Origin: a virus
Taxonomy: Duplodnaviria > Caudoviricetes
Virus record (IMG/VR): IMGVR_UViG_3300031569_000004
Coordinates: 1 to 60,900 of that record
Strand: one strand, 5' to 3'
DNA length: 60,900 bases
The notes beneath the pieces are model-generated. The model was given only the letters and a program-made list of their open reading frames with translations, was not told where the DNA came from and did not search any database. The position numbers were made by a program, and so were the translations under genes. Below are positions 2,282 through 53,445 of this stretch, in pieces. Each line of letters opens with the position of its first letter. Position 1 is the first letter of the stretch.

Positions 2282-2292
2282 GGAGAGTAATT

Positions 2293-2745: not shown

Positions 2746-2761
2746 TAGGAGTTAACAAGAA

Positions 2762-3613: not shown

Positions 3614-3627
3614 GGAGAGTATAGAAT

Positions 3628-4485: not shown

Positions 4486-4487
4486 AA

Positions 4488-5342: not shown

Positions 5343-5363
5343 AGGACAACAGGAGTATATATT

Positions 5364-5864: not shown

Positions 5865-5887
5865 ACTTAGTTACATACTCCAATATT

Positions 5888-5912
5888 AAAGGGCTCTTCG
5901 GAGCCTTTTTTT
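5888..5912 (+). terminator. Rho-independent terminator
   Basis: GGCTC-TTCG-GAGCC stem-loop followed by T7. Confidence 0.9.
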
Positions 5913-5936
5913 ATTTACTCCACTTCAGATTCTAAC

Positions 5937-5942
5937 TAAATA
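5937..5942 (+). promoter_or_regulatory. Putative late promoter for rightward halogenase/oxygenase operon
   Basis: TAAATA box just after a terminator, same box as before structural genes. Confidence 0.6.
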
Positions 5943-5974
5943 ATAGTAGCATATAATACACCAAAGGATTTATA

Positions 5975-7588
5975 ATGAAAATTAAAACAGTAACAATCGT
6001 AGGCGGCGGTTCATCAGGATGGATGACAGCAGCAGCACTAGCTAAATGTTGCCCACATTTAGATATAACTCTAATTGAATCCAAGTCTATTGGCACAGTT
6101 GGCGTTGGTGAAAGTACCCTCGGGCATATCAACAGATACATGCGTTTACTTGATCTTAAAGACGAAGATTGGATGGCAGCATGTAATGCTACATATAAAA
6201 ATTCAATTCAATTTACAAACTTTAGAGAAGGCAACGGTGAAGTATTTCAATACCCGTTTAGTGACGGACTTGATATGACTGATAAGCCTAGTGGGGCAGA
6301 CAACTGGAAACAACTAGCTGCATTACGTCCTGAAGAATACGGTCCTGAAGAATATGCTAGATTTTTCTGTACAGGTAACACGCTACTAGCAGAGCATAAC
6401 AAGCAAACTAAAAATGAAAATGGCGTATTAAGAAACTTTGATTATGATAACGATACTGCATATCATATGGATGCACAGTTGTTTGGACAATACCTAAAAG
6501 ATAACATTGCAATTCCTTTAGGTGTAAAACACATGTACGGAGAAGTACATTCGCACATGAAAGATAATACTAATACATACATTACTCAAATTTTATGTGC
6601 TGACGGAACTATCCTTAAAGCAGACTTGTTTGTTGACTGTACCGGCTTTGCCTCAATTTTATTAGAACAATGGATGGGCTCACATTTTAGAAGTTTTGAA
6701 AACCATTTAGCAAATGACAAGGCTTGGGCATGTAGACTTCCTTATACTAATAGAGAAGAGCAAATGCACAATGTAACTGATTGTTTTGCACTTGGCAACG
6801 GCTGGGTGTGGAATATTCCTTTATGGAATAGAATTGGTACTGGGTATGTGTACTCTAGTAGATTTACTACTCCAGAAGCTGCTAAGGTTGAATTTAGAGA
6901 ACATTTAGCAAAAACACACACTCCTGAAATTGCAGAAGCTGCTGAAATGTTTGAAGTTAAAATTAGACACGGACGTAGACATAGAGCGTGGAAAGGTAAC
7001 GTAGTTGGTGTGGGGTTAAGTTATGGATTTGTTGAACCATTAGAATCAACAGGACTATTAACTACACATGAGAATGTTATTAAGTTGGTCGATCTATTAA
7101 ATCGTAGAGACGGATTTGTATCACGCAGTGAAAAAGAAGGATTTAATTTCTCAGCTGAGTTTGACGTAATTAAGTTTAGAGATTTTGTTTCGCAACATTA
7201 TGCAATGTCGATGCGTGAAGATACTCCGTACTGGCGTTGGTGTACTGAACTTAACGAATATTCTCCAGAGATGCATGCCGATGAAATGCAAAAACATGGC
7301 CAATGGGCTAATATGTTTGGAAACATTATAGGCGCACATAGTTATGAGCCAAATCATGTTGGTAATAACATGATTGCAGCAGGTATGGGATTACGCCCAA
7401 CTGGAACACCGTCACTATTATCTGTTAATAGACAATTAGTACAACTTCAAGAAGAAGTAGGTGCAGTTGATAGAATGTATCAGCAGTATAAAAACTTTGT
7501 TATAGAGCACATTAAAGATCTTCCAACGCATTATCAATTCTTACTAGAAAATATATACGGTGGTAACGATGAGCATAAACTTGATTAA
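5975..7588 (+). CDS. Flavin-dependent (tryptophan halogenase family) halogenase 1
   Basis: GGGSSG FAD motif, VGVGEST, ATYK (catalytic Lys position), GWVWNIP, FVEPLESTG. Confidence 0.92.
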   Translation: MKIKTVTIVGGGSSGWMTAAALAKCCPHLDITLIESKSIGTVGVGESTLGHINRYMRLLDLKDEDWMAACNATYKNSIQFTNFREGNGEVFQYPFSDGLDMTDKPSGADNWKQLAALRPEEYGPEEYARFFCTGNTLLAEHNKQTKNENGVLRNFDYDNDTAYHMDAQLFGQYLKDNIAIPLGVKHMYGEVHSHMKDNTNTYITQILCADGTILKADLFVDCTGFASILLEQWMGSHFRSFENHLANDKAWACRLPYTNREEQMHNVTDCFALGNGWVWNIPLWNRIGTGYVYSSRFTTPEAAKVEFREHLAKTHTPEIAEAAEMFEVKIRHGRRHRAWKGNVVGVGLSYGFVEPLESTGLLTTHENVIKLVDLLNRRDGFVSRSEKEGFNFSAEFDVIKFRDFVSQHYAMSMREDTPYWRWCTELNEYSPEMHADEMQKHGQWANMFGNIIGAHSYEPNHVGNNMIAAGMGLRPTGTPSLLSVNRQLVQLQEEVGAVDRMYQQYKNFVIEHIKDLPTHYQFLLENIYGGNDEHKLD

Positions 7589-8360
7589 GAATATAAAGAA
7601 CTTTTTTAAAAAAAAGAAGTCTTATATTCGATTTTATAGTGTATACCCGGGTGTAATGGATTTGTTTCCCCCTGTAAAGGCATTGTCAATAGTGAGATCA
7701 TTTACTAAAGATGTGCCGCCTCCAGGGATGCTTCCTGTAGCTAAGTGTCCTGGCATACGTAAAATTGCAACTACGGGTTGGATCATTACTGCCCCAGCTG
7801 ATTTTAAAATTAGAACAAACGGTGACGGCGCCTCATTTGAATGGGCAGAACCGATGCAGTTTGGTAAGGGTATGCCGGGTACTGAATCTTATATTGCATC
7901 GCATGACAAAGCTCAAACAATGCCAATATTAGATGATCCATCTGATACGTTACACACTACAATCAAAATCGAAACTCCTTGGAGAATTGAAGCTTCAAAT
8001 GATATGATGCTACTGCAACTACCTGTAACATATAACAACGAATCGAGGTTTACAGCAGCACACGGACTATTAGATCCTATGCAGTCTCATGTAATAAATG
8101 TTCAACTGTTTTGGAAAGTGCTTGAAGGCGAAACGTTGATACGTGCAGGAACACCATTAGCACAATACATTCCTGTGAAAAAACAGGACTTGCTTTATAG
8201 TGCATATGATGCTATAATTGAAGAGCCAACAGAGAATGACCATAAGCGAGAAGCTGCTTATAACTATGCAGCTAATTGCGTAATACTAGAGCACGATCAT
8301 TTAGGTTCAAGATTACAAAGAGCCTCTAAGATTCTAAATAAGTATAAACACAAAGGATGA
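7569..8360 (+). CDS. Hypothetical protein of a type found in phage oxygenase islands (KCPGI...GWIITAP...ETPW...AGTPLAQYIP)
   Basis: Coupled to halogenase; ATG at 7569 preferred to GTG at 7560. Confidence 0.5.
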   Translation: MSINLIKNIKNFFKKKKSYIRFYSVYPGVMDLFPPVKALSIVRSFTKDVPPPGMLPVAKCPGIRKIATTGWIITAPADFKIRTNGDGASFEWAEPMQFGKGMPGTESYIASHDKAQTMPILDDPSDTLHTTIKIETPWRIEASNDMMLLQLPVTYNNESRFTAAHGLLDPMQSHVINVQLFWKVLEGETLIRAGTPLAQYIPVKKQDLLYSAYDAIIEEPTENDHKREAAYNYAANCVILEHDHLGSRLQRASKILNKYKHKG

Positions 8361-8620
8361 CAAATATGGAAAACAATTATATTAAAAAATTAACTGCTGT
8401 TAAGGTACAATTAACAGCTAGTCTTGAAACACAGAATGCCGAACTTGAAAAGTTAGAAAAAGAATTTGCAGATTTAAAACTTAATCCTTACGGTATCACT
8501 TCTATTGATTTTGCAAAACGTCAAGAACTTTCTGTTGATACATTAAAAATGGAAGGAACACTTATGGGTATTGATCTAGCTTTAGAGACCTATGAGGAAG
8601 AGCATGGTAAGTCAGATTAA
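8357..8620 (+). CDS. Small coiled-coil hypothetical protein
   Basis: Heptad-like LETQNAELEKLEKEFADL; overlaps neighbours. Confidence 0.55.
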   Translation: MTNMENNYIKKLTAVKVQLTASLETQNAELEKLEKEFADLKLNPYGITSIDFAKRQELSVDTLKMEGTLMGIDLALETYEEEHGKSD

Positions 8621-9191
8621 TGAAGGAGGAGTACATCTCTTTCCGCCTTATATATGGAAGTATACTTACGACTTTCCTTTAGATACATTACAAAAATCTA
8701 TTGACGAAGTTTTTGATGCTGTTAAGCACAACTCAGCTTTAGAAAAGGGCAATGCTTTATCAACAGTAGCAAACCCCGAATGGCAAAAGCCGCATACATG
8801 GGAAGAACTTGCTGACTTCCAAGGATGGCTAGGTGATAAACTAACAGGCATTAAAGAAGAATTAAATTTTTACAATCGACAATCAGAAGTAATTGGATCT
8901 TGGTTTAATAGACATTATAAATCCGGTTACACTGAAGAACATCATCATAATCATGTAACATTCGTTGCTAGTTGCTATCTAAAATGTCCGCCTAACAGTG
9001 GAAATATTGTATTTAGAAATCCGTTAGAGTACCAGATGTGCAACTTTCCAATAGTTAACGAAACGCAAACATTGAGCGAAGTAGAATGTAAAACAGGAGA
9101 CGTTATTATTTTTCCAGGATGGCTTAAACATCTTGTTACACCTAACAATACAGACCAAGAAAGAATTGTAATGACAATTAATATTAAATGA
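8604..9191 (+). CDS. 2OG-Fe(II) oxygenase (TIGR02466-like)
   Basis: WFN..HHH..ASCYLK..GNIVFRNP..FPGWLKH.V..RIVMTIN; GAGG RBS before ATG 8604. Confidence 0.85.
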   Translation: MVSQINEGGVHLFPPYIWKYTYDFPLDTLQKSIDEVFDAVKHNSALEKGNALSTVANPEWQKPHTWEELADFQGWLGDKLTGIKEELNFYNRQSEVIGSWFNRHYKSGYTEEHHHNHVTFVASCYLKCPPNSGNIVFRNPLEYQMCNFPIVNETQTLSEVECKTGDVIIFPGWLKHLVTPNNTDQERIVMTINIK

Positions 9192-9991
9192 TGGATTTTA
9201 AGATTTGTTACCCTGACGCAAACACTATAGACAAAGTGTTAAAAGTAAAGTCATTAGATGACTTTGCTACAGAATATGTTGACTTGGGTCAAGGCATTGG
9301 GTATTGGATTGCAGACAATCCGTTTTATAATGACGGCTTTGAAATATTTAAAAATTTAGTAAAATGTTTTCCTATTGTTAAAGATAACAGTGCAGAAGGT
9401 AACATGGATCCTAATCCGTTTGATACTATACATTTACCAGACTGGGTATACAAAAACATTTGCTTTTTAATTAGAGATTTTTATCTTAAAAATGTTGAAG
9501 ATACTATGTATGATCCTCAAATACATGAATGGGGAAACATCTATTTTAAAGATAGGGCAAAACCAATTACTTGTTATAGACTTCCGCATGTAGATTATCC
9601 TAAAGGATTAGTTGCTAATTTATGGTTTACTAATCACTCAATTAAAGATTCAAATACAAAATTATACAAATATCACGGAGAAGTAAAAAACTGTGTATAC
9701 GACTTTCAACTTGATACAACACATCCTTTGTTTGAATCATGGAGAGAATTAGCACAGTCACCTAAACGTTCTAACACGTGGTTTAACATGACAGATGATG
9801 AATTGAGTAAATGGGGATTTGAATGTATGGGTGCTGCACCATCAATTGAAGGAAAAATGACTATGTATAAAGCAGACATTAGCCATGCCGCAATTGTTTC
9901 GCCTAGTGTTGATTTTAGATGGAGCCATACATTTGCATTTTCAGATGATTTTGCTCCAGCAATGAGAATGGGAGATATTATACCACAATGA
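9188..9991 (+). CDS. 2OG-Fe(II) oxygenase-like protein
   Basis: LPHVD (HxD), VANLWF strand, distal SHAA His, RWSH. Confidence 0.7.
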   Translation: MMDFKICYPDANTIDKVLKVKSLDDFATEYVDLGQGIGYWIADNPFYNDGFEIFKNLVKCFPIVKDNSAEGNMDPNPFDTIHLPDWVYKNICFLIRDFYLKNVEDTMYDPQIHEWGNIYFKDRAKPITCYRLPHVDYPKGLVANLWFTNHSIKDSNTKLYKYHGEVKNCVYDFQLDTTHPLFESWRELAQSPKRSNTWFNMTDDELSKWGFECMGAAPSIEGKMTMYKADISHAAIVSPSVDFRWSHTFAFSDDFAPAMRMGDIIPQ

Positions 9992-10614
9992 TGCAAATGG
10001 ATTTATACTTTCCAACCCCTGTATGGTGGGAACAAACAGACTTAGACAACACAGAAATGTTAAAGCTATGCTATGAATTACTCGATGCTGATACTGATGG
10101 TAGAAAGTTAAGTAATCAAGGAGGTTGGCAGTCAAAAGATTTTAGACCAGATTTATACGATGTAATGAAACCGTTACATGATAAGATTATGGACCAGGTT
10201 GATAATTGCATACGTGATTACGGATACCATGAAGACTATTGTACACCTTTGATGGAAAACTTTTGGTTTAATATTAATAAGCAAGGCAACACAAATTCAG
10301 TACATATACATGATAACGCTTTTATATCTGGAGTATACTATGTAAAAGCAAGACCCGAGCAAGGTAACATTAATGTTTATAAAAACCATATGCAAGACTT
10401 TATTATTGCATCAGCAGCACCAATGCAGAGTTATACTCCAATTAGTGCATCTTGTATTGCATTTGAACCAGCAGAAAGTAAACTAATAATGTTTCCAGGT
10501 TGGTTGCCACACGGTGTTGACAGAAATACTATTGACGAAGATAGAATAAGTGTATCTTTCAATGTAAAACTAATAAGGACAGATGATGAACGACTTCGGA
10601 CAACGAATACTTAA
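9988..10614 (+). CDS. 2OG-Fe(II) oxygenase (TIGR02466-like)
   Basis: SNQGGWQS, WFNIN..HIH..ISGVYYV..FPGWLPHGV..RISVSFN. Confidence 0.9.
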   Translation: MMQMDLYFPTPVWWEQTDLDNTEMLKLCYELLDADTDGRKLSNQGGWQSKDFRPDLYDVMKPLHDKIMDQVDNCIRDYGYHEDYCTPLMENFWFNINKQGNTNSVHIHDNAFISGVYYVKARPEQGNINVYKNHMQDFIIASAAPMQSYTPISASCIAFEPAESKLIMFPGWLPHGVDRNTIDEDRISVSFNVKLIRTDDERLRTTNT

Positions 10615-11305
10615 CGAAACTAATCTGTTAGTAGATGACAAAGCTCATTACTTTGAAAAGCTACTAGACAATCCTAGTGACCTTGTTACTTGGAATGATA
10701 TAGAACGTTGTGTAAATCAAACAGAGTTGTATAAGTTCGAGTTAATTGATCAAAATAGTACCAAGATAGAAATTCCACAATCTGGTAAAAATTGGATCTA
10801 TGATAAAGCAGTGCAAGACAAACAATTTATTATTGATAGTGTTAACCGAGGACAGGGATTAATTTGTTTAGACTATGGTTTTTACAGTCAAAAAACAATG
10901 GAATTTTTAAGTGTGTTTGAAAACTTGTTTAGTGTACACGCTGCAATACATGTGTACTGCGGTATGAAAGATTCTAAGTCTTTTACAATACATGATGATT
11001 ATCCATGTAACTTTATTATTCAAGCTGAAGGCGAAACACGTTGGAAAGTATATAAAAATAAAATTTCATACTTACATCGAACAGGATTAATGAATAATAA
11101 ACTAAGCGATAAAGATTTAGAAGTTGATATTGATGTAGTATTAAAACCAGGAGATGCATTATACATTCCGTCAAGGCAGTATCATTGTGCATATCCTAAA
11201 GGAAAAAGGATATCGTTAAGTATTCCGTGTTGGCAAAAACTTCCAACAGAACCACGGGAGAATGCAGTAGACAGAAATTATTATAGGATCAACAACAATG
11301 TTTAA
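10583..11305 (+). CDS. JmjC/cupin-4 oxygenase (YcfD/NO66-like fold)
   Basis: SFTIHDDYPCNFIIQAEGETRWKV and LKPGDALYIPSRQYHCA. Confidence 0.8.
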   Translation: MMNDFGQRILNETNLLVDDKAHYFEKLLDNPSDLVTWNDIERCVNQTELYKFELIDQNSTKIEIPQSGKNWIYDKAVQDKQFIIDSVNRGQGLICLDYGFYSQKTMEFLSVFENLFSVHAAIHVYCGMKDSKSFTIHDDYPCNFIIQAEGETRWKVYKNKISYLHRTGLMNNKLSDKDLEVDIDVVLKPGDALYIPSRQYHCAYPKGKRISLSIPCWQKLPTEPRENAVDRNYYRINNNV

Positions 11306-11879
11306 ACCAATTGAAATACCAAATGTAATTGATAGAGAATATCAAAAACAAATACACGATGTAGTAACTGACATAACATTTGATTGGCACTTTATGGAAG
11401 ATACAACATTTGAAAAGAAAGATACTATTAATAAATCTACTCCTTCTTTTGCAAACTTAGTATATCATCCAGATAATAAAGAAAATCCTGGATTAGAGTT
11501 TTTTAAACCGTTGTTAGAAAATACGTGTGCTAAAGCTGGTTTGGAATTAGATACATTGTTACGTATGCGATTAGGATTTTTACTTAATACAAAGTATATG
11601 ATGCCACATGTGAGATATCAATACAATACACCACATGTGGATTTTAATGTAGATCATTATACTGCGTGTTACTATATTAATGAATGCGATGGCGAAACAG
11701 TTATATTTCACGAAACACAAGAATCAGAAAAATATAACGCTATGCATAAAAGTATGCCGGAACAAGGCAAAGTTGTAGTATTCAACGGAAGACATTATCA
11801 TGCAAGTACATGCCCTAAGATGTTTACGAAAAGAATTGTAATGACTATGAACTTTACAGCGAGTAAAATAGATGGATAA
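11298..11879 (+). CDS. 2OG-Fe(II) oxygenase
   Basis: PHVD, YYINECDGETVIF, VVFNGRHYHAS, RIVMTMNF. Confidence 0.85.
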   Translation: MFKPIEIPNVIDREYQKQIHDVVTDITFDWHFMEDTTFEKKDTINKSTPSFANLVYHPDNKENPGLEFFKPLLENTCAKAGLELDTLLRMRLGFLLNTKYMMPHVRYQYNTPHVDFNVDHYTACYYINECDGETVIFHETQESEKYNAMHKSMPEQGKVVVFNGRHYHASTCPKMFTKRIVMTMNFTASKIDG

Positions 11880-12582
11880 AGAGCAATATATTAACGAACT
11901 ATTAGAAAGAGATCAAGTATCATCTTCTCGTATTAGCTCATTAAATCTTAAAGATAGGTTTACATATCCTTATCTTCCAACGATGGTAATTGATAACTTT
12001 TATGAGGAACCTGATCTAGTTCGTGAATATGCTTTAGATTTAGAATTTTATAAAGGAAATAGAGGAAGCTGGCCAGGAGTAAGAACTAAGCTACTTCATG
12101 AGTTTGATCAACAAACATTAGATATATTCGGAAAGAAATTACTAGTGTATCTTAAAGATTATGGATATACAGGGTTTGCCGAATTACAATCAGCATTTCA
12201 TTCTACACCCGAATCGTATACTAGAGGTTGGGTACATGACGACGATCCCAAGTTAAATGTTGCTGGAGTAGTTTATTTAAACAAAGAAGCTGCAATGGGC
12301 ACAGGCACTACTATATACGAAGATAAAAATGATTTTAATAGTAGCAAATACGCTCAAGCATTTATGGAAGATGTACTTGATGTTTCAGCAGAAGAAAAAC
12401 AAAAGTTTAATAAATTACGAGAACAACAAGTAGCAGAATTTAAAAAAACAATAACAATGGAAAGTGTATACAATCGTTGTATTATATTTGATACAAGGAA
12501 TTGGCACAGTCCAGAGAACTTTTATGGCACCACAGTTGAAGATGCAAGACTAACCCAGGTGTTTTTTGCGAGGGCAATATGA
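11872..12582 (+). CDS. 2OG-Fe(II) oxygenase (DUF6445-like)
   Basis: IDNFYEEPD..WPGVRT..WVHDD..AGVVYL..GTGT..YNRCIIFD..WHS..RLTQVFF. Confidence 0.8.
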   Translation: MDKEQYINELLERDQVSSSRISSLNLKDRFTYPYLPTMVIDNFYEEPDLVREYALDLEFYKGNRGSWPGVRTKLLHEFDQQTLDIFGKKLLVYLKDYGYTGFAELQSAFHSTPESYTRGWVHDDDPKLNVAGVVYLNKEAAMGTGTTIYEDKNDFNSSKYAQAFMEDVLDVSAEEKQKFNKLREQQVAEFKKTITMESVYNRCIIFDTRNWHSPENFYGTTVEDARLTQVFFARAI

Positions 12583-13088
12583 TTAAACACATTACACAGC
12601 CTATGAAAGTTATTGACAACTTTTTTGAACAACCTCAATTAGTAGTTAAACATGCTATTAAGCAAGAGTATGTTGATCAAGATAATTCATTGTTTTTAGG
12701 TACACGTTCAACAACTTTAGATATGATTGATATTGATATGTTTGAAGGCTTACTCGGAAAGTTAATTAATCATGTTGTAGGAAAAGACTTGTTTACATTT
12801 TTACATTGTGAATATCAAAAAATAAACAAAGAATCCGTTGATCAAATTAAAGTAATAGGACCTTCGTTTAATATAGCAGGCACTATATTTTTAACAACTG
12901 ATCATATACCCTATAGTGGAATAAAATTTTATGATAGTGTTATGCATAATGAAACTATGTCTGTAGAAAACGTGTTTAATAGATGTGTACTTTGGGATCC
13001 TCGAGTACCTTATAAAATATCAAACTTTACAGACAACACATTAATGCTAACATTTTATGGCACAGCAGTACAGAGGTACCCAGGATGA
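12579..13088 (+). CDS. Degenerate paralogue of the preceding oxygenase lacking iron ligands
   Basis: Keeps IDNFFEQP, GTRS, IAGTIFL, NVFNRCVLWD but has no HxD and Tyr in place of the distal His. Confidence 0.65.
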   Translation: MIKHITQPMKVIDNFFEQPQLVVKHAIKQEYVDQDNSLFLGTRSTTLDMIDIDMFEGLLGKLINHVVGKDLFTFLHCEYQKINKESVDQIKVIGPSFNIAGTIFLTTDHIPYSGIKFYDSVMHNETMSVENVFNRCVLWDPRVPYKISNFTDNTLMLTFYGTAVQRYPG

Positions 13089-13696
13089 ATGACGATATTA
13101 TAGTAATTGACAATGTTATCCCAAAAGATTATTCTGATCATATTAAAAATTTAATGACAGGATGGGAGTTTGGTTGGGTGTTTAATCAAACAATGGTATC
13201 ACCTGATGCAGAACTACAAGGCGAAAGTAATCATGCAGGATTTAATCACTTCTTTTATGAAAACCAACAAGCTGCTAGTCAACACTTTAACTTCTTATAT
13301 CCGCTTGTTTTAAGCGTTACTAGTGCGTCTAAGACGCCGTATAACAGGCTTATACGTATGCGGGCTAACTTGACCCTACCTAATAAAACAAGCACGTTAG
13401 ACCACCATATGCCGCACATAGATAGCTTCTTTGAGCATTGGAATGCAATTTACTATGTCAACGATAGTGACGGTGACACAGTTATCTTTAATGAAACAAA
13501 CGATGATTACGATGCAGGCAAAGATGATATTATGCGTATTCAATCAAATAAGTTTACAGTCAAACAACGCATTGAACCTAAGCAAGGTAGAGTAGTTGTG
13601 TTTCCAGGCAAGTATTATCATAGTAGTAGCTTTGCTAAAGATTCAAATTATAGATGTGTTATTAACATGAATTTAGATAGAGTACAGCTAACATGA
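13085..13696 (+). CDS. 2OG-Fe(II) oxygenase
   Basis: PHID, IYYVNDSDGDTVIF, VVFPGKYYHSS, RCVINMN. Confidence 0.85.
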   Translation: MNDDIIVIDNVIPKDYSDHIKNLMTGWEFGWVFNQTMVSPDAELQGESNHAGFNHFFYENQQAASQHFNFLYPLVLSVTSASKTPYNRLIRMRANLTLPNKTSTLDHHMPHIDSFFEHWNAIYYVNDSDGDTVIFNETNDDYDAGKDDIMRIQSNKFTVKQRIEPKQGRVVVFPGKYYHSSSFAKDSNYRCVINMNLDRVQLT

Positions 13697-14250
13697 GCGA
13701 ATACTACTTACATGAAAGTCAATATATAATTGATAATAAGACTCAGATTTTCGATCATTTAGATAATGCACACAGGAATTTTCATAAACTATTTCCATCT
13801 AGCAACGACTCAACTTGGTCATACAATTTATATAATGTATTTGCATTAACTGCTCCTTCAACAATTTTTCACGGCATCTATAAAGAACTAGGAACATTTG
13901 TTAAAAGTCATTTAGGTAACGAACGCCCATTGTGGATACAAGCGTGGCTGAACTATCATAAGCATGACGAGTGTTTAACACGCCACGGTCATGAATTTGA
14001 TTACCACGGGTACATTAGTATTGACCCAAAGAAAACAAATACTGTTTTTGATAATTGGACAATTGAAAACAAGCCAGGCCAAATATACTTTGGTCCTGGC
14101 AATGCAATGCATGAAGTTCAAGTGTTAGAACCGTATGAAGGATATCGTACAACTATAGGATTTGACGTACACACCATACCAAATAGTCCTTTGTATAGAA
14201 ACTACGAAGAACGTCCGTTTGGAAATATGGGGTTAATGCCATTACTATGA
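13693..14250 (+). CDS. 2OG-Fe(II) oxygenase-like protein
   Basis: AWLNYH..HGH..HGYISI..GQIYFGPGNAMHEV..RTTIGFD. Confidence 0.7.
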   Translation: MSEYYLHESQYIIDNKTQIFDHLDNAHRNFHKLFPSSNDSTWSYNLYNVFALTAPSTIFHGIYKELGTFVKSHLGNERPLWIQAWLNYHKHDECLTRHGHEFDYHGYISIDPKKTNTVFDNWTIENKPGQIYFGPGNAMHEVQVLEPYEGYRTTIGFDVHTIPNSPLYRNYEERPFGNMGLMPLL

Positions 14251-14870
14251 TTGAAGATTATAAAATTATTAAAGGTGCAGTATCAAAAGAACTTTGCGAT
14301 TTTCTAGCATTAGAATATGAAATGATGGAAAAAGTTTGCAACGTATTGTATTCTGGTGCTGACTTGTCTGACCTTTGTGAAAACACTTTTGCAAGATACG
14401 CTCCGTTAATGTTTGAAACATTAATGGTAAAACTAAATCCTTTGGTTGCAAAAGAATGGGGCAGTGAGTTAGTACCAGTATACTCTTATGCTAGAATATA
14501 CTATAAAGGTTCTGAGTTACAAAAACACTTTGATCGTCAAAGTTCAGAAGTATCAGTATCAGTAGCTATATCAAAAGAAGATATTACTTGGCCGTTTTAC
14601 ATTAAAAACAAAGAAGGTACTGTACACGAAATTAATTTAGAGGTTGGTGATATTGTAATTTATAGTGGGCGTAGACACGAACACTGGAGAGATCCATACA
14701 AAGGTAATAAAGTAATTCAAGCATTTTTACAGTATGTCAATCCCACAGGTCCGTATGCACATTTAAAATGGGATACGAAACCTGCACTAGGATTGCCTGC
14801 TGAGTACGTTCGTCAAGAAATAAAAGACGAAGTACAGAGCGTTAAAGATATGCTGGGGTTTAAGCGATAA
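14247..14870 (+). CDS. 2OG-Fe(II) oxygenase
   Basis: YSYARIY..LQKHFDR..EVSVS..GDIVIYSG..HWR..QAFLQY. Confidence 0.8.
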   Translation: MIEDYKIIKGAVSKELCDFLALEYEMMEKVCNVLYSGADLSDLCENTFARYAPLMFETLMVKLNPLVAKEWGSELVPVYSYARIYYKGSELQKHFDRQSSEVSVSVAISKEDITWPFYIKNKEGTVHEINLEVGDIVIYSGRRHEHWRDPYKGNKVIQAFLQYVNPTGPYAHLKWDTKPALGLPAEYVRQEIKDEVQSVKDMLGFKR

Positions 14871-15029
14871 CTAGTCGCTAACTTTTGTAGGCCCAGCAAC
14901 GATTCTAGCTGGTGTGTGACGCTCTTCAAAGATTTTTGATGCTTCTTCTTTGTTTTTTGCTTCACATGTATCTTGAGTAATTGGCGATTTGCCAGCTTCT
15001 ACTCTAATAATCATTTTGTAAGTTGCCAT
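14871..15029 (-). CDS. 52-aa hypothetical protein not in ORF track (MATYKMIIRVEAGKSPITQDTCEAKNKEEASKIFEERHTPARIVAGPTKVSD)
   Basis: Read on minus strand; GGAG RBS (15037-15040), TAAATA box at 15049-15054; fills the gap exactly. Confidence 0.75.
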   Translation of the reverse strand: MATYKMIIRVEAGKSPITQDTCEAKNKEEASKIFEERHTPARIVAGPTKVSD

Positions 15030-15047
15030 AATATAACTCCTATATCT

Positions 15048-16601
15048 TTATTTATCAATATTCTGCACCCATTCGTCGATTGTCCAGAATGGAGCTACAA
15101 GTTCTTTGTAGCGGTTTACGTTAGTATTTAGCACTTGTTTGCCAATATCTAATTTATCTGCAAATGCGTGTGTAAAGTATGTACTATCAAATATATCTAA
15201 TCCTTGGATAACTTGCATCCATGCAGCCGGCGAGTAACCGTTAAAAACTGGCTCAACAGGCGAGTGGCCTTTCCAAAACATTTCCCATTGTTTTAATTTT
15301 TGTTTTAGAGATTCTGGAATACGCTCTTGGTCGTGCATATGACTTAACCAAAAGTCTGTGTCGCTTCGGTTTCCTCTAAAATGTAGTGCAATGAAATCTT
15401 TAATATCGTCATATACAATTGATACTCTATGATTAAATCGTTCTTGGAATGCAGTATGATCCCTTCTATTGGGGTCCCATAAGTCTTGTAATGCAAATAA
15501 ACTTTCACAAATAATCGCAATGCCGTTTGCTTCTAATGGCTCTAAAAACCCACTACTAAGACCAATTGCTATAACATTTTTATTCCAACTTGTATCCATA
15601 ACACTTGGTGTATACGTAAATGATGCAACAGGCTCAATATGATCTCCACATACACTACGTGCTTCTTCTAGTGCTTGATCAGGTGTTAAGTAGTTTGGAT
15701 CAAATATGTATCCGTTTCCTGATCTATGCTGTAAATTAATATTCCAGCGCCATCCGTATTTCATTGCAGTTGCATTGGTAGTTGGTGAATACTTTGGTTC
15801 GTCCCACCACGCAATTACTGACCTATGTGTAAAGTAATTAGAATAATCATGCTCTTTAGTTTTTAGTTTTTTACCAATAAGCAGTCTTGCAAATCCAGAA
15901 CAATCTATAAACCATTCTGCATTAATTTCTCGGTTGTCATCTAACACTAATGATGTTAAGTTACCATTGCTATTTTGTGTTGCATCAACATATGTGCCTT
16001 CTGTTAAATTAATATTACGTTCTAATGCAATAGATTTTAAATATGCTGCTGTTGCTCTACTTTCGTTATGCCACATTGGAATAATAGGCAATTCAGATTT
16101 ACTTGCACCAAACGGAACTTTGTTTTCTTTAATAAAATAATTTGCATAAAACGCATCTGCCAACGGTACATTGTTTCCTAGTAAAGTAGCTTGATACAGA
16201 TCTTTTTGTCTTTCGGCTACCATAATATTTTTTAATTCACCAAGAGATACGTCTTTAACAGTTTTATTAGTGTCAGTCCAACCGTCTAACCAAGGTGCAT
16301 AATCAGTTTGTAAACAATGTATGAACTCACTACCAACACCACTCCAGTCTTTAAAGCTACCACCTAGCTTAGGAGTAGATTTTGTGTGTTTAACAAAGTC
16401 GTCAAAATCAATATCAACATGTTTTAACATTTCAACAAATGTAGTAGTGCCGCTTTCGCCTGCAATGATAGGAGGTTTATTGGGATCTTCTACTACAGTA
16501 ATCTGCATAGATGGAAACTTTTTTCTAACAACTAATGCAGTTAGCCAACCTGCAACGCCGCCGCCAAGTATAACAAGATTAGAGGCTGTATTGGGATTCA
16601 A
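15048..16601 (-). CDS. Flavin-dependent halogenase-family protein 4 (divergent)
   Basis: GGGVAG, AGESGT, STPK, GWRWNIN, FLEPLEANG. Confidence 0.85.
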   Translation of the reverse strand: MNPNTASNLVILGGGVAGWLTALVVRKKFPSMQITVVEDPNKPPIIAGESGTTTFVEMLKHVDIDFDDFVKHTKSTPKLGGSFKDWSGVGSEFIHCLQTDYAPWLDGWTDTNKTVKDVSLGELKNIMVAERQKDLYQATLLGNNVPLADAFYANYFIKENKVPFGASKSELPIIPMWHNESRATAAYLKSIALERNINLTEGTYVDATQNSNGNLTSLVLDDNREINAEWFIDCSGFARLLIGKKLKTKEHDYSNYFTHRSVIAWWDEPKYSPTTNATAMKYGWRWNINLQHRSGNGYIFDPNYLTPDQALEEARSVCGDHIEPVASFTYTPSVMDTSWNKNVIAIGLSSGFLEPLEANGIAIICESLFALQDLWDPNRRDHTAFQERFNHRVSIVYDDIKDFIALHFRGNRSDTDFWLSHMHDQERIPESLKQKLKQWEMFWKGHSPVEPVFNGYSPAAWMQVIQGLDIFDSTYFTHAFADKLDIGKQVLNTNVNRYKELVAPFWTIDEWVQNIDK

Positions 16602-18093
16602 GATATCTCTCCTTTAGTATGTTTAGTGCTTCTCTATGAGTATAAATTGTTCCATGATCAGGACGGTCAGCAGTACCTTCATGAATAACTCTTGAAATCT
16701 GATTGTTGTGTACACTAGCAAAATTAGTGTTCCAAAAAGATTTAATAGATGCATAATCAAACATGTGTAAGCCGTGCATAACTTGTAACCAATTTAAAAA
16801 ACTAAACATTGTCATAGGCTCTGCAAAATAGCTTGGACTTACAAATGTTTGCTTAAAGGTACCAAGAGTATCTTTATTAAAATCAGTTAGTTCAATATTT
16901 TGATTACACCACTTCCAAAACTCGCTGTCGTTTCTTTTAGTAACATAATGAATTTGAATAAAATCAATAATGTTAGTAGCAACTTTATTCATTCTGTTGT
17001 TAAATGTTTTTACTAATGCACTAGATGAATCTTTTCGATAGTATGCAAGTGATCCCACCAACAGAAACGTTTGCTGGATAGTCGATCCAATCGAACTTGC
17101 TTCTAATGGTTCTACAAACATAGCACTAAGACCTAATGACATACAGTTTTTATTCCAAAATTCGTTAACATACCCAGCATTAAATTTTACATCTTTTCCA
17201 ATTTCTAAATTTTTAATACCTAATACGTTTTCGTAGTATTGTGATACTTCGTCATATGCCTGCGTCTTGTTAATAAAGTTATCGCTAAACACATATCCGT
17301 TACCGTATCTATCTTGTGTTGGTATTCTCCAAACCCATCCGCTACTTAATGCAGTTGCTTCTGTCCACGAAGGTATGTCTTCAGTTCTAGCTGTTGGAAA
17401 TGCAATAGCACTATTCATTGGTAATTGATGAGAACAGTCTATCCATTGTTGTCCAAGTTTAGACGAAATTACTCTATTAAAACCACTACAATCTATAAAA
17501 AACTCACTAGTGTGTTTAGTACCTGTAGTATCAAGTAACGATTCTACATTACCTGTATTGTCTAAAATTACATCTTGTATGTCAACATCTAATACTTTAA
17601 TATCTCGATTGTTGCATTCTTTAACAAGAAACTCGTTCAATTTGTGTGTATCAAAATGATACTGTGCTACTGTAGCATGTAATGGTTCAGCATGTAAACT
17701 ATCTTGTGTACGTTTCCATGCAGTGTCTAAAGGGTCCCATTGATCAGCAATCATTTTCATCCACGATACTGGCATTTCATTGCTTGGATCTAATGAACCG
17801 TATGCGTCTGTTAAACTATGAAAATAACTTTTATCATCACCATTCCAGTTAGTAAACTTAATACCAATTTTAAATGTGGCGCCTGTTTCTCTTACAAGCG
17901 TTGGCACATCAATACCGACATGCCCTAAAAAATGTTCCCAGTGTTCAGTTGATCCTTCACCTACACCAATAATTCCAATTTTAGATGAACGCAACAGTGT
18001 AAGGTTAATATGAGGGAAAGATTTTTTAATTATCATTGCAGAAACTAGTCCGCTAGTCCCGCCTCCTAATATTGTTAAAGATTGAATCATCAT
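16579..18093 (-). CDS. Flavin-dependent halogenase-family protein 3
   Basis: GGGTSG, VGEGST, ATFKIGI, GWVWRIP, FVEPLEASS. Confidence 0.9.
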   Translation of the reverse strand: MMIQSLTILGGGTSGLVSAMIIKKSFPHINLTLLRSSKIGIIGVGEGSTEHWEHFLGHVGIDVPTLVRETGATFKIGIKFTNWNGDDKSYFHSLTDAYGSLDPSNEMPVSWMKMIADQWDPLDTAWKRTQDSLHAEPLHATVAQYHFDTHKLNEFLVKECNNRDIKVLDVDIQDVILDNTGNVESLLDTTGTKHTSEFFIDCSGFNRVISSKLGQQWIDCSHQLPMNSAIAFPTARTEDIPSWTEATALSSGWVWRIPTQDRYGNGYVFSDNFINKTQAYDEVSQYYENVLGIKNLEIGKDVKFNAGYVNEFWNKNCMSLGLSAMFVEPLEASSIGSTIQQTFLLVGSLAYYRKDSSSALVKTFNNRMNKVATNIIDFIQIHYVTKRNDSEFWKWCNQNIELTDFNKDTLGTFKQTFVSPSYFAEPMTMFSFLNWLQVMHGLHMFDYASIKSFWNTNFASVHNNQISRVIHEGTADRPDHGTIYTHREALNILKERYLESQYSL

Positions 18094-19583
18094 AGTGAGT
18101 AAGTGATCCCTTTTCCTTTAATACTGTCTACTGCTTGTCTACAAGTAAGCCATGTGCCTCCTGTAGTAGTTTGCGGAAGTTGATCTAATTGTTGTATATC
18201 CTGTGTACGATAATGACTATAACGACTTTCGTACAATTTTTTAATATTTTTTTGATCAAACATTCTTAACCCGTGCATCACTTGAATCCAATTTAAGCAA
18301 TCGTATATTCTAAAACTGCCATGTGTTCCGTCTTCGGGTAACAATACTTGATTAACAAAATTAGTTTTAAACATCTCTATGTTTTCTTTATTAAAGTCTG
18401 TCATAGTAATTTCGTTATTGCACCATTGCCAAAACTTAGTATCATTGCGTTGTGTAAAGTAATGTAACTGAATAAAGTCTAATACATTAGATAAACAATC
18501 GTCAAATGTTTTGTTATATTCTTTAATGGTGCCAGTGTCGTTGCGATCCCAAGTTGCTAAAGAACCTGCTAACGCTCTTGATTGTTGAATAGTAGTTGAA
18601 ATGCTACTTGCTTCTAGCGGCTCAACAAAGTTACTACTAAGCCCAATGCTTACACAATTCTTAATCCAAAACTTATTGACTTTTCCTGATACAAAGTTAA
18701 TTTTTCTACCAATGTTAATTGTATCTGTAAAATGTTTTTGTATTTCGTTAACGGCTTCGTCTTCTGAAATAAATTGATCACTAAACACATATCCATTACC
18801 AAATCTATCTTGTACAGGACTGCGCCAATGCCAACCTGCATCCATTGCCTTAGATAATGTGTAAGGAGGAATTTTTTCTTCGTATGGTGTTTGGAATGCA
18901 ATAGCACTATTCATTGGCAGATACTTAGACCAATCAACCCACTCTGCTCCTAGCTTAGATGCAATAACTCTTTTAAATCCGCTACTGTCAATAAAGAAAT
19001 CTGCATGATGTTTTGCATTAGTTGAGTCAACAACATAATCAACAAATCCGTTTTGATCTAATACAGTATCAACTACTTCGGCATCGATTACTTTAATTCC
19101 AGCTTCAATACACCTCTTTAATAGATATGCATTTAATTTTTCACTATCAAAATGGAACTGATAATAATCTTCAAACGGTGGGCTTAACCATCCTTGCATT
19201 GGCAAGTCCCAATGTAATTCTTCAGTGCTAGTACCATCTGCAATTAAACGCATCAGTGTGTGTGCATCACCAGTATATCCGTCAGTCCATAAATACGGCT
19301 CGGCCAAACTATGATAATAGCTAGTACCATCACCGTGCCAATTTTCAAATTTGATACCAATTTTAATAGTTGCGCCACATTCTTCAAAAAGGTCTTTTAG
19401 CGTTATACCAACTGCTTGTGCAAATCGTTTCCAGTGTTCTGTACTACCTTCACCTACTCCGATTGTGCCAATCTTGTTAGACTTAATAAGTGTAATATCA
19501 ATATTACTAATTGCTGTTTTTTGATATAATGCAGTCATAAGTCCAGCGTTTCCACCACCTAAGACTAGTAAACTTTTTATCAT
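18090..19583 (-). CDS. Flavin-dependent halogenase-family protein 2
   Basis: GGGNAG, VGEGST, ATIKIGI, GWHWRSP, FVEPLEASS. Confidence 0.9.
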   Translation of the reverse strand: MIKSLLVLGGGNAGLMTALYQKTAISNIDITLIKSNKIGTIGVGEGSTEHWKRFAQAVGITLKDLFEECGATIKIGIKFENWHGDGTSYYHSLAEPYLWTDGYTGDAHTLMRLIADGTSTEELHWDLPMQGWLSPPFEDYYQFHFDSEKLNAYLLKRCIEAGIKVIDAEVVDTVLDQNGFVDYVVDSTNAKHHADFFIDSSGFKRVIASKLGAEWVDWSKYLPMNSAIAFQTPYEEKIPPYTLSKAMDAGWHWRSPVQDRFGNGYVFSDQFISEDEAVNEIQKHFTDTINIGRKINFVSGKVNKFWIKNCVSIGLSSNFVEPLEASSISTTIQQSRALAGSLATWDRNDTGTIKEYNKTFDDCLSNVLDFIQLHYFTQRNDTKFWQWCNNEITMTDFNKENIEMFKTNFVNQVLLPEDGTHGSFRIYDCLNWIQVMHGLRMFDQKNIKKLYESRYSHYRTQDIQQLDQLPQTTTGGTWLTCRQAVDSIKGKGITYSL

Positions 19584-20200
19584 ACGCCTTTTTCCTTGTT
19601 ATGCACTTCTATATTTGCAACAGAGTCTGTTGCAAGATTGTAATTAATTGCTCCTGTGGGCATTACATTAAAACTAATAACATATCTGTCTTCGTTTCCA
19701 AAATGCGGTGTTGAACTATGAAACAACCAACTAGGAAATAATACTAACTTCCCAGGAACTGCTTCTATAAAATGGTGCGGAGCGTATTCGTGTCTTAATA
19801 CTTCTAGTTGTGCTTCAGTTCTATGTTTTACTGGATCTTCAAACACAGTAGGGCTTCCGTCAGTTACATAATACACAGCACTAAGAAAACTCATCGAGTG
19901 CCTGTGATAATGTAATCTCATTCCGTCTTGTGGTAATGCTCTATTAAACCAACTACTAGTAATTGCAAATCCTTCGCAATCATATTTTTGATTAATTCTA
20001 ACTTCTTCAATACATTTGTTAATCCAAGAAAATAAAGGTTGCAATCCTTCTTTGTCGTGTAGGTTTCTCATCGAACTTATTGTTTCGCTAGACTTAACGG
20101 CATCTGCATATTTTTCAAGTTCGGGAATTAATAGTTTATTGTCAATCTCGGTATTTTGAAATTCAAACATATCCGTTGGAAATGTAGGAATAATTTTCAT
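19580..20200 (-). CDS. 2OG-Fe(II) oxygenase (TIGR02466-like)
   Basis: SWFN..HRH..LSAVYYV..FEDP..FPSWLFHS..RYVISFN; ATG at 20200 overlaps upstream TAA. Confidence 0.85.
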   Translation of the reverse strand: MKIIPTFPTDMFEFQNTEIDNKLLIPELEKYADAVKSSETISSMRNLHDKEGLQPLFSWINKCIEEVRINQKYDCEGFAITSSWFNRALPQDGMRLHYHRHSMSFLSAVYYVTDGSPTVFEDPVKHRTEAQLEVLRHEYAPHHFIEAVPGKLVLFPSWLFHSSTPHFGNEDRYVISFNVMPTGAINYNLATDSVANIEVHNKEKGV

Positions 20201-20778
20201 TAGTATTCTACCCAACCAGTTAATAAATATTTTTCTCCACTTAGTGGTGGATTACCTCTATGTGTGTGAGTATATCCCGCAGGCCAAACTGCAAGTGTAC
20301 CTTGAACTGCTGGAACTCTTTTTTGTTGATACAACCATTCTGTTTCACCACCTTCTTCAATAGTGTTAAGATACAATCCCCACGCAGCTACTCTACCAGC
20401 TCTTTCTTTGTTATCAGCTTCAAAATGCCAAGTGTGATATCCTTCTCCTGGTAGTGTTTTTTGAATTTTCATATAATACACTCTAGTCGGTGAACAATCT
20501 GTTAACACACTATAATGGGCTGTATATTGTTTCCAACAATCTATAAATCTTTCTAGAAATGTATACACAGCAGGGTTATCAGTTGACAGATTTAATGCCG
20601 GTTGTTCTAAAAGAAACACTGCATTATCTGCTTTGTTGTGTGCAGAATTATCACCTATGGACTGGCGAGAATGCGCCATGCCCAATTTTTGTAATTGTTC
20701 ATAATACTCAATTAATTGAGCACATTCTTCAGGTCTTAGGACCTCTTGCCAAGTGGCGATGTCTTTATCTATGATCAT
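20200..20778 (-). CDS. 2OG-Fe(II) oxygenase, prolyl-4-hydroxylase-like
   Basis: GYHTWHFE, YLNTIEEGGETEW, WPAGYTHTHRGNPP..KYLLTGW; start moved to ATG 20778, 5 nt after a TAAATA box. Confidence 0.88.
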   Translation of the reverse strand: MIIDKDIATWQEVLRPEECAQLIEYYEQLQKLGMAHSRQSIGDNSAHNKADNAVFLLEQPALNLSTDNPAVYTFLERFIDCWKQYTAHYSVLTDCSPTRVYYMKIQKTLPGEGYHTWHFEADNKERAGRVAAWGLYLNTIEEGGETEWLYQQKRVPAVQGTLAVWPAGYTHTHRGNPPLSGEKYLLTGWVEY

Positions 20779-20783
20779 ACGTA

Positions 20784-20833
20784 TATTTATGGTTAGAAAG
20801 TTTAACAGCCTATTAGTCTGATTCAGATAAATA
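20784..20833. promoter_or_regulatory. Divergent pair of putative late promoters
   Basis: TAAATA on minus (20784-20789) and plus (20828-20833). Confidence 0.65.
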
Positions 20834-20863
20834 CTTTGTAATAACAGTGGAAGAATTGAAAAT

Positions 20864-22426
20864 ATGGCTAATATACCTATCATTAATAATCTTAGAGTAG
20901 TACCAAGAGATGCAGAGTTTCTTGACCGAAAGACTGGTGCCAGGGGTGAGATCTTTTACGATAAAGATAATAACACCATAAGACTATTTGACTCAGAGAT
21001 TGTAGGTGGATTACCACTAGCAAGAGGCGATTTAACTAATATTACTAACTCTGTATTTGCTGCAAAAGCAACAGCAGCAGGAGTTGGCGGTGGCGGTGGC
21101 GGCAGTATTGAAGTAAGTCTAACAGCACCTAGTACACCAACAGAAGGCACAATCTGGTTTAATAGCAATAATGGACTACTGTATGTTTATATCAATGATG
21201 GCGATAGCAATCAATGGGTACAACCTGTATTAGGTTATCCTGCAATTCCTTCAACCCTACAAGATTTAACAAACGTAACTATTACAACACCAAGTACTAA
21301 TCAGGTATTAAAATACAATGGCGCAGCTTGGGTAAATGCCGCAGATGCAGGCGGAATTGCATTAACAGATTTAAGTGTATCCACAGCGGCTGCCGGAACA
21401 TCAGCATTTGCATACAACAATGGCACAGGTGTATTTACATTTACTCCACCAGATTTATCAGGTTATTTAACAAGTATACCAGCACAATCATTCACAAGTT
21501 TGACAGGCAAGCCTACTACAATATCAGGTTATGGTATTACAGATGCTGCAACATCAGCACAAGGTACTAAAGCAGATAGTGCATTACAAAATTTAACAGC
21601 AACATCAATTACAACACTATCTGATGTTGCATCAAGTTCACCGAGTCCTAACCAAGTACTTAAATGGGACGGATCACAATGGTCACCTGCCGCAGACGCT
21701 GTTGGTAGCGGATCAGCTGCCGCAACTATTAGCGGAGCAACTCAAGCAAATCCGGTAGTAGTTACATCAGCTTCTGCACACGGTTTCTATGAAGGACAGC
21801 CAGTAACTATTACTGGTGTTGTTGGCATGACGCAGCTTAATGGTAACGAATACTACGTAAACATTGCAACTTCAACATCGTTTGCTTTATACTCTGATAG
21901 TGCGTTATCAACAACTGTAAACGGTACAGGCTTTGGTGCATGGTCATCAGGTGGTACAGCAACAGGCGGAGCAGTTGCAGCTGAAGTAGGTAACTTTGTA
22001 TTCACAGGTTCAAACATTGACACAGGTGATAGTTCATCTATAAGTGTTACTCCACTTGTTACAATGCAAAGTGATTTAACTGTTGAAAACGATTTAACTG
22101 TAAACAATTTGCTTACAGCAGCACAGTTTTCAGTAACAGACTTTACAACAACTAATCATACAACACAGAATTTAACAGTAAATGATACATTATCAGTAAA
22201 AACTATCGCACAGACCGATACTGGCACACCTCAGATTACAAGTAGTTCAACACTAGTTTTAGATACACAAGACGGTGTAAGAGTTACCGGTGCTCCATTT
22301 AGACTGCCTAGCTTTACAACAACACAGAAAAATGCACTAACACCTGCAAACGGTGATATGGTATATGACACTACGTTGAACAAAGCACAGGTATACGAAA
22401 ATGGTGCTTGGGCGAGCTTGGTATAG
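20864..22426 (+). CDS. Tail fibre / virion structural protein
   Basis: TAPSTPTEGTIWFNS, LQDLTNV..NQVLKYNGAAW repeats, ATQANPVVVTSASAHG (E1-FCCH-like) module. Confidence 0.75.
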   Translation: MANIPIINNLRVVPRDAEFLDRKTGARGEIFYDKDNNTIRLFDSEIVGGLPLARGDLTNITNSVFAAKATAAGVGGGGGGSIEVSLTAPSTPTEGTIWFNSNNGLLYVYINDGDSNQWVQPVLGYPAIPSTLQDLTNVTITTPSTNQVLKYNGAAWVNAADAGGIALTDLSVSTAAAGTSAFAYNNGTGVFTFTPPDLSGYLTSIPAQSFTSLTGKPTTISGYGITDAATSAQGTKADSALQNLTATSITTLSDVASSSPSPNQVLKWDGSQWSPAADAVGSGSAAATISGATQANPVVVTSASAHGFYEGQPVTITGVVGMTQLNGNEYYVNIATSTSFALYSDSALSTTVNGTGFGAWSSGGTATGGAVAAEVGNFVFTGSNIDTGDSSSISVTPLVTMQSDLTVENDLTVNNLLTAAQFSVTDFTTTNHTTQNLTVNDTLSVKTIAQTDTGTPQITSSSTLVLDTQDGVRVTGAPFRLPSFTTTQKNALTPANGDMVYDTTLNKAQVYENGAWASLV

Positions 22427-53444: not shown

Positions 53445-53445
53445 T

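Follow-up and report, generated by a model that had tools for sequence, protein, structure and literature searches.

A cassette of halogenase and oxygenase genes behind late-type promoters, linked to fiber-tip genes in a T4-superfamily phage contig

Flavin-dependent halogenases and many 2-oxoglutarate (2OG) oxygenases of cyanophages have been recorded in genome papers since 2005–2010 without a substrate. One of them, VirX1 of cyanophage Syn10, serves as a biocatalyst. The published account describes it as trimeric, with an active site large and open enough for bulky substrates and a preference for iodide, gives the natural substrate as unknown, and reports that many free aromatic small molecules are halogenated in vitro, 6-azaindole being the best reported substrate (PMC8407142). 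In genome papers, prnA and the 2OG genes are assigned to metabolism or DNA repair (PMC3037559; PMC9964418). Here we analyze a 60.9-kb stretch of viral DNA, the entire contig of IMG/VR record IMGVR_UViG_3300031569_000004 (hereafter the window), whose positions 5975–20778 hold an island of such genes beside the genes for fiber tips.

The island, an accessory cassette that is intact and lies downstream of late-type promoters, consists of two convergent operons, 5975–14870 on the plus strand and 20778–14871 on the minus strand, which together encode four flavin-dependent halogenases, 12 proteins of the cupin/double-stranded β-helix fold, a predicted dUTPase-fold protein and two small open reading frames (ORFs) (Table 1). 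Gene junctions all overlap by 4–32 nt, except for an 18-nt gap before the 52-residue ORF s52. A preliminary description, made from the DNA letters alone, had proposed two convergent, translationally coupled operons with four halogenase and 12 oxygenase-fold genes flanked on both sides by fiber genes, and all of this is borne out: the four halogenases match PF04820 and keep the FAD, lysine and glutamate motifs, and the oxygenase-fold genes comprise seven with Pfam matches, three with PHROGs or sub-threshold matches, the gene at 14247 and the cupin at 13693.

The order tips, p166, halogenase(s), gp43-like, gp44-like and 2OG genes is common to the window, Syn9 (gp38–gp49), Syn10, S-CREM1, P-TIM40 and Sf-FP1. 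Whereas Syn9 and Syn10 have two halogenases at the HAL1 position, the window has one; it adds a second convergent operon and three more halogenases, and has 12 oxygenase-fold genes in all. The locus is an expanded variant of an already sequenced, uncharacterized cassette (Syn9 gp38–gp49; the VirX1 neighborhood of Syn10). Our literature search found no paper treating this block as one system or tying it to the tips.

Table 1 Features of the island and its flanks. Identities to Syn9 or S-CREM1 were obtained by local tblastn.
Feature	Coordinates	Strand	Family or motif evidence	Identity to Syn9 or S-CREM1
Tip 1	2762-3613	+	PF21722 Gly_rich_2	52-73% (all tips)
Tip 2	3628-4485	+	PF21722 Gly_rich_2	
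Tip 3	4488-5342	+	PF21722 Gly_rich_2	
p166, Syn9 gp40 family	5364-5864	+	phrog_1787; between tips and halogenase	49-50%
HAL1	5975-7588	+	PF04820, E 3.7e-103; VirX1 ortholog	54-57%
u266, Syn9 gp43 family	7560-8360	+	Predicted dUTPase-fold beta-barrel, helices at N- and C-terminus	49%
s87, Syn9 gp44 family, 87 aa	8357-8620	+	KLNPYG.T.IDF..RQE core	51-61%
Oxygenase	8592-9191	+	PF13759	
Oxygenase, DUF6445-like	9188-9991	+	PHROGs only	
Oxygenase	9988-10614	+	PF13759	
JmjC-type oxygenase, 240 aa	10583-11305	+	JmjC_2, 64 bits	49-60%
Oxygenase	11298-11879	+	PHROGs only	
Oxygenase	11872-12582	+	DUF6445	
Oxygenase, DUF6445-like, possibly degenerate	12579-13088	+	PHROGs and sub-threshold Pfam (19.4 vs 24)	
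Oxygenase	13085-13696	+	PF13759, just above cut-off	
His-rich cupin	13693-14250	+	HxH..H and GPGxxxH	
Oxygenase	14247-14870	+	HxD...H..R invariant in 30 sequences	
s52, 52 aa, last gene of minus operon	14871-15029	-	Strong Shine-Dalgarno, own TAAATA at -25	
HAL2	15048-16601	-	PF04820, E 3.9e-88	
HAL3	16579-18093	-	PF04820, E 1.1e-95	
HAL4	18090-19583	-	PF04820, E 4.4e-105	
Oxygenase, in head pair of minus operon	19580-20215	-	PF13759	
Oxygenase, P4H-like, first gene of minus operon	20200-20778	-	PF13640	
Divergent late-type promoter region	20784-20833		TAAATA minus 20784-20789 (island), plus 20828-20833 (fiber gene 20864)	
Right flank: fiber-like gene	20864-22426	+	Family/PHROG matches	
Right flank: S8 subtilase	22436-24964	+	Family/PHROG matches	
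Right flank: baseplate-fiber connector	24987-25805	+	Family/PHROG matches	

Linkage to the tip genes and transfer between phage lineages

Related loci were gathered from both ends of the block. A halogenase alignment yielded 78 IMG/VR loci, 61 with at least 3 kb of upstream sequence and 74 scored for u266 downstream; a tip alignment yielded the best 80 of 129 loci, all at least 57% identical and not independent of the halogenase-seeded set. Of the 61 loci in the halogenase-seeded set, 43 carry a tip gene within the 3.5 kb that precede HAL1 and 42 carry p166 upstream of it, and u266 directly follows HAL1 on its 3' side in 41 of 74. Among the best 80 of 129 tip-seeded loci, HAL1 lies within 2.5 kb downstream of the tips in every locus with enough sequence (53/53). 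In phage records, the tips match 17 records of eight cultured phages, and in all eight a halogenase of the VirX1 clade lies just downstream, at a distance of no more than about 3.5 kb. Co-occurrence of the island with His-rich tip genes, which the preliminary description had set as a test, gains comparative support. Two reduced loci (L040 and L042) contain just tips, p166, one oxygenase and HAL1, followed by the neck module.

The rest of the window has a different affinity. Its genes for sheath, tube, terminase, gp32, UvsX/Y and helicase are those of a T4-superfamily myovirus. The backbone is not that of a typical T4-like cyanophage, the phages that the preliminary description had named as carriers of such enzyme families. 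For the sheath and TerL, encoded at 31557–34922 and 39797–41413, and for UvsX, the comparisons are as follows: the nearest TerL relatives are in the group of Pseudomonas jumbo phage PA5oct (51.7%), with Sinorhizobium phage Phosso also near, the 1121-residue sheath has a full-length match to Phosso only (39%), and the identities to Syn9, S-CREM1 and P-TIM40 are just 33–35% for TerL and 31–33% for UvsX. IMG/VR contigs related to the window reach 265–354 kb.

Module genes at 49–73% identity, set against TerL and UvsX at 31–35% and a PA5oct/Phosso-like backbone, indicate that the tips passed from lineage to lineage jointly with the enzymes. By these identities, the tips, p166 and the island are one conserved module that has moved horizontally, with the tip genes forming its upstream end. 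No Pseudomonas or Sinorhizobium phage occurs among the halogenase matches in the phage-record collection, and a megablast search of the island against phage records returned no match. The block transfer suggests a cyanobacterial host. Co-transfer of tips and enzymes is the strongest argument for a function in common.

Promoter boxes and expected timing of expression

Both operons begin behind a TAAATA box. The plus-strand box (5937–5942) lies 38 nt before the HAL1 ATG at 5975, after a terminator-like hairpin (5888–5909) with a T run, and the minus-strand box lies 11 nt before the ATG at 20778. The latter start was chosen because, in the longer ORF, residue 42 is the first covered by family matches, and because of the TAAATA 11 nt upstream. 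The p166 gene has its own box at −28. In the window, TAAATA occurs 63 times on both strands and lies within 70 nt of 15 of the 68 gene starts, against about 2.3 expected. The exact −11 arrangement, TAAATA-N5-ATG, precedes six gene starts against 0.035 expected: 20778(−), 29362(+), 31425(−), 35635(+), 38038(+) and 47644(+). Genes for neck, tube-like and virion proteins are among the six. At one further start, 29316(−), TAAATA lies 8 nt before the ATG. Should TAAATA be the late −10 element, the mRNAs of these genes would be leaderless or nearly so. The TAAATA-N5-ATG spacing is also found before inserted oxygenase genes in four related loci (L021, L056, L151 and L152).

The box is conserved where its surroundings are not. 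Of 70 distinct relatives, 43 preserve a hairpin and TAAATA between p166 and the next gene, where 3.7% would be expected, although the sequence on either side has diverged. All relatives that keep TAAATA after p166 belong to a clade with HAL1 at least 54% identical; the box is missing there in more distant ones. In Syn9, TAAATA lies 26–32 nt before gp34, gp35, gp38 and gp40.

Two promoter observations of the preliminary description hold. Each operon is headed by the box otherwise found before neck, tube and fiber genes, and in the island, where no sigma70 promoter had been noticed, sigma70-like sites are at chance level (70 against 68.1 in shuffles). A perfect sigma70 promoter, TTGACA-17-TATAAT, does occur at 30440–30486, before an early-type deoxynucleoside monophosphate kinase gene, unlike the TAAATA-boxed structural genes. 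The exact T4 box TATAAATA, in contrast, did not hold up: it was found four times in the window against 8.6 expected, and we rejected this octamer as the island promoter as it is neither enriched nor present at the operon heads. The late expression put forward in the preliminary description gains from the conservation of TAAATA in 43 of 70 relatives and in Syn9; its timing component is read from motifs. On this basis we infer late expression of the island, which is well supported. Metatranscriptome contigs from four runs in three studies cover 25–28 of 30 bins of 2000–21900, which attests presence in RNA libraries only, with DNA carry-over possible.

Properties of the enzymes, tips and companion proteins

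The four halogenases score 296–353 bits against a PF04820 cut-off of 21. All contain GGGxxG, the ATxK lysine and FxEPLE, and residues G10–G12, G15, K75, E354 and E357 are invariant across the four paralogs and 38 HAL1 orthologs; these residues belong to the flavin adenine dinucleotide (FAD) motif, the catalytic lysine and the FxEPLE glutamates. HAL1 and HAL3 have an intact WxWxIP motif; the corresponding stretch is WxWxIN in HAL2 and WxWxSP in HAL4. HAL1 matches VirX1 (PDB 6qgm) along its full length (E 2.8e-195, residues 2–530) and shares 53.7% identity with the Syn10 and Syn9 genes; by sequence, it is the ortholog of this iodinating halogenase. From its orthology to VirX1, halogenating activity and halide preference can be predicted for HAL1 alone. 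HAL2, HAL3 and HAL4 fall in PrnA-like clades, the best phage match of HAL4 being the PrnA of S-SCSM2R (38%). The island halogenases share the Pfam family and the FAD, lysine and glutamate motifs with PrnA, RebH and Thal but are only about 25–35% alike to them, and no tryptophan pathway genes lie near the island. VirX1 also differs from these enzymes in its reported lack of chloride preference (PMC8407142).

Pairwise identities among the halogenases are 25–29%, with HAL3 and HAL4 at 46%, and no two oxygenase paralogs exceed 29% identity. Recent duplication of the halogenases was rejected on these values (25–46%); judged by this divergence, both sets of paralogs are old. The 12 cupin/β-helix genes comprise 11 of 2OG type, one of them JmjC, and one cupin. 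Three PF13759 genes (8592, 9988 and 19580) also match TIGR02466, and all three have an HxH-type stretch. The HxD/E...H pattern was found in the genes at 9188, 9988, 10583, 11298, 11872, 12579, 13085, 14247 and 20200, with the expected spacing and context in 10583, 11298, 11872, 13085, 14247 and 20200 and a doubtful register in 9988 and 12579; neither 8592 nor 19580 has it.

Two island oxygenases come from families in which the characterized proteins are protein hydroxylases. The JmjC gene at 10583 is nearest NO66/MINA53, with a match to NO66 of E 1.4e-8 over residues 100–203. Like NO66, MINA53 and YcfD it matches the JmjC_2 core and has HxD...H; at 240 residues against chains of 442–489 it matches the catalytic core only, and the dimerization and winged-helix domains of those proteins were not matched in it. 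It may work like a JmjC hydroxylase, though we do not count it as a member of the NO66/MINA53/YcfD family. The second, the gene at 20200, belongs to PF13640 and is of P4H type.

The tips are virion-fiber proteins by family and by predicted fold. They score 28–41.6 bits against the PF21722 cut-off of 24.3 and are 61–62% identical to each other. An AlphaFold2 model has a mean confidence (pLDDT) of 76, the His-rich stretch being its least confident part, and Foldseek ranks the cyanophage Pam3 fiber first (7ypx_A, E 2.5e-7), followed by the tail tip of Bxb1 and the glycine-rich domain of ALK; a profile search against PDB sequences gave no match. Histidine makes up 3.9–5.3% of the tips, compared with 0–1.5% in the other fiber, neck, sheath and tube proteins tabulated and 2.0% in the S8 protease. 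Across 61 sequences, four histidines and three tyrosines are invariant and four more histidines are at least 90% conserved, with 0–4 HxH motifs per tip (median 2). In Syn9 gp39 (L084), the tip-like frame seems to extend to about 10851, past the annotated end at 10757, and its C-terminus, GRPGLVVITHYL, resembles that of the window tips. The adjacent p166 is possibly a fiber chaperone or adaptor.

The tips are like the T4 gp37 needle, in which histidines bind iron, in being His-rich with HxH motifs, but their predicted Gly-rich fold is that of the Pam3 fiber, not of the gp37 needle. The Ferrojan Horse hypothesis holds that fiber iron mimics siderophores (bioRxiv 10.1101/674382). Siderophore mimicry by the tips finds no support beyond that hypothesis in print.

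Among the companion proteins, u266 overlaps the end of HAL1 and probably starts at the ATG at 7569. Its AlphaFold2 model has a pLDDT of 91; the best Foldseek match is dUTPase 3ecy (E 2e-4, TMt 0.75), and the top 11 VIA matches are all dUTPases (Z 9.7–7.8). The u266 atlas entry begins at residue 4, read as M, and some cluster members carry DUF6065. D81 is invariant and D172 nearly so, at positions resembling dUTPase motifs I and III, and the C-terminus is helical in the model where dUTPases have motif V. Neither Pfam nor NCBIfam gave a dUTPase family match, and a single-protein search of genome contigs found no relative. A role of u266 as flavin reductase or oxygenase was rejected, its fold being dUTPase-like. 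A HAL1–u266 complex prediction scored 0.00 against a mark of 0.32, gave no model and bears neither way. All 14 s87 sequences, drawn from different phage lineages and including those of Syn9 and S-CREM1, have the core without variation, while the helical flanks vary; s87 has no Pfam, PHROG or NCBIfam match. Seven distinct orthologs of s52 were found, at 36–98% identity.

To the right of the island, the S8 subtilase (22436–24964; 842 residues) has its protease domain at the C-terminus and is placed between the fiber-like gene and the baseplate-fiber connector. The claim that no scaffold-building enzyme is present stands for the island, where Pfam, PHROGs and NCBIfam detect no nonribosomal peptide synthetase, polyketide synthase, cyclase, peptidase or transporter; the window does hold a late sugar/glycosyltransferase/methyltransferase operon at 47644–56765. 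This operon is headed by TAAATA-N5-ATG and encodes a cytidylyltransferase fused to a mannose-6-phosphate-isomerase-type cupin, a GT8 glycosyltransferase, an FkbM methyltransferase and many family-less ORFs, with an NAD epimerase/dehydratase further on at 60188–60898; it may glycosylate virion or host structures. Also outside the island, 58869–59228 encodes a small Cupin_2 protein whose PHROG is named cysteine dioxygenase.

Candidate substrates of the cassette

Our tentatively favored reading, which we hold well short of an even chance, is that the cassette is expressed late and that its enzymes hydroxylate and brominate or iodinate a macromolecule made by the phage, the neighboring tips being the likeliest. 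The enzymes would be produced in the infected cell simultaneously with virion parts and would draw on host FADH2, 2OG, Fe(II), O2 and seawater halide. Side chains of the target would be hydroxylated and halogenated, with bromine or iodine likelier than chlorine by analogy with VirX1, and each of the many old, diverged paralogs might serve a different residue or site. The receptor-binding tips next to the island are the best candidate target and the small conserved protein s87 the second; the outcome would be a tuning of adsorption or particle stability. Late expression and a functional tie to the tips draw support from promoter context, gene linkage and block transfer. The earlier interpretation is supported in part, and modification of the tips itself remains conjectural. 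A fuller version, in which the tips carry bromo- or iodo-Tyr, -Trp or -His and multiple hydroxylations introduced by a portable late cassette that moves with the tip genes between unrelated lineages, is doubtful.

Several observations weigh against modification of the tips. Late timing is deduced from motifs, and the linkage may reflect only a hyperplastic insertion site in the fiber region. No tip lies nearby in 18 of the 61 HAL1-like loci, in all of which HAL1 identity is 37–46%. In S-B64, a 38%-identical VirX1-like gene follows the SbcCD genes in the replication module, and HAL4-like halogenases lie between the terminase genes in HTVC008M and among small non-structural genes in S-SCSM2R. 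(The S-H35 annotation suggests the same replication-module place for its halogenase as in S-B64.) The Gly-rich fiber fold also occurs in the solved Pam3 and Bxb1 virions, and Pseudanabaena and Mycobacterium phages are absent from first-word tallies of the halogenase matches, their presence in the collection being unchecked. A nucleotide-hydrolase fold is predicted for u266, and cellular halogenase relatives sit in TonB-receptor/glycan-utilization loci with Cupin_8 or DUF6445 and without fiber proteins. Finally, VirX1 is reported to halogenate free small molecules in vitro (PMC8407142).

This last activity leads to the foremost alternative, in which the enzymes act late on host metabolites such as indoles, aromatic amino acids, pigments or quinones, and the fiber region merely tolerates insertions. 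We regard it as doubtful, and as somewhat less likely than the favored reading. It accords with the breadth of free aromatics that VirX1 is reported to accept (PMC8407142), with the metabolic classification of prnA and 2OG genes in the genome papers (PMC3037559; PMC9964418), and with the halogenases found at other genome positions in S-B64, S-SCSM2R and HTVC008M. Against it stand the sixteen tailoring enzymes, which come without a scaffold-building enzyme or exporter, the late-type promoters, which are those common to structural genes, and the order with the tips, which is preserved after inter-lineage transfer.

Cellular relatives of the halogenases point to a carbohydrate-linked or outer-membrane substrate, either host surface glycans or a glycan of the phage's own late sugar operon, which we consider unlikely. 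Among bacterial halogenases, the nearest reach no more than 38% identity to HAL1. By Pfam, their loci have adjoining TonB-dependent receptors in 17 of 34 cases, among glycoside hydrolases and sugar transporters, with Cupin_8 in 4/34 and DUF6445 in 1/34; tblastn finds such receptors in 37 of the 57 long loci, Cupin_8 in 23 of 80 loci and an island oxygenase homolog in only one of the 80. Examples within L156–L235, such as L163 and L222, are halogenase and TonB-receptor glycan-utilization loci with Cupin_8/JmjC or DUF6445 partners. These loci resemble the island in having halogenase, Cupin_8 and DUF6445 families side by side, but they lack fiber genes. The cytidylyltransferase-cupin fusion, GT8 glycosyltransferase and FkbM methyltransferase of the window's late operon would fit a glycan target, but that operon lies 27 kb from the island. 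Our literature search on the association of halogenases with TonB receptors returned incidental mentions only and no function for the bacterial loci. Flavin-dependent halogenases are known for electron-rich aromatic substrates and are not known to act on sugars.

The small ORFs raise the prospect of a pathway akin to that of ribosomally synthesized and post-translationally modified peptides (RiPPs), or of a cofactor-like pathway, in which s87, with its invariant NPYG loop, or s52 is hydroxylated and halogenated. Flavin halogenases that act on peptides exist, s87 lies within the operon with an invariant core and variable flanks, and s52 has its own TAAATA box and a strong ribosome-binding site. 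Even so, such a pathway is quite improbable: Pfam and NCBIfam revealed no leader/core architecture, peptidase or recognition-element domain, many HAL1 loci have no s87, and a typical diversifying RiPP would not have a core as conserved as that of s87. Modification of nucleotides or DNA bases, with u266 presenting a pyrimidine or deazapurine nucleotide to the halogenase and oxygenases, is a slim prospect. Its supports (the dUTPase fold, the two aspartates at positions resembling motifs I and III, the S-B64 halogenase among replication genes, and 6-azaindole as the best reported VirX1 substrate, PMC8407142) are countered by the late-type promoter and structural module of the island, by the failure of any island oxygenase to match AlkB or TET/JBP-type families at Pfam and NCBIfam thresholds, by the C-terminal helices of u266 in the place of motif V, and by the existence of viral proteins that have a dUTPase fold but no enzymatic role (VIA matches 12 and 13 of u266).

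What is new here is the placement of the VirX1 clade in a conserved late-type block that is tied to adhesin genes and accompanies these from one phage lineage to another. The substrate question can be tested in cultured phages, namely Syn9, Syn10, S-CREM1 and P-TIM40. If the tips do carry halogenated and multiply hydroxylated residues introduced by a portable late cassette, they would be the first halogenated viral structural protein and would provide VirX1 with its natural substrate. Were the tips modified, host recognition in abundant marine phages would hinge on oxidative and halogen chemistry, and thus on the supply of oxygen, iron, 2OG and halide.

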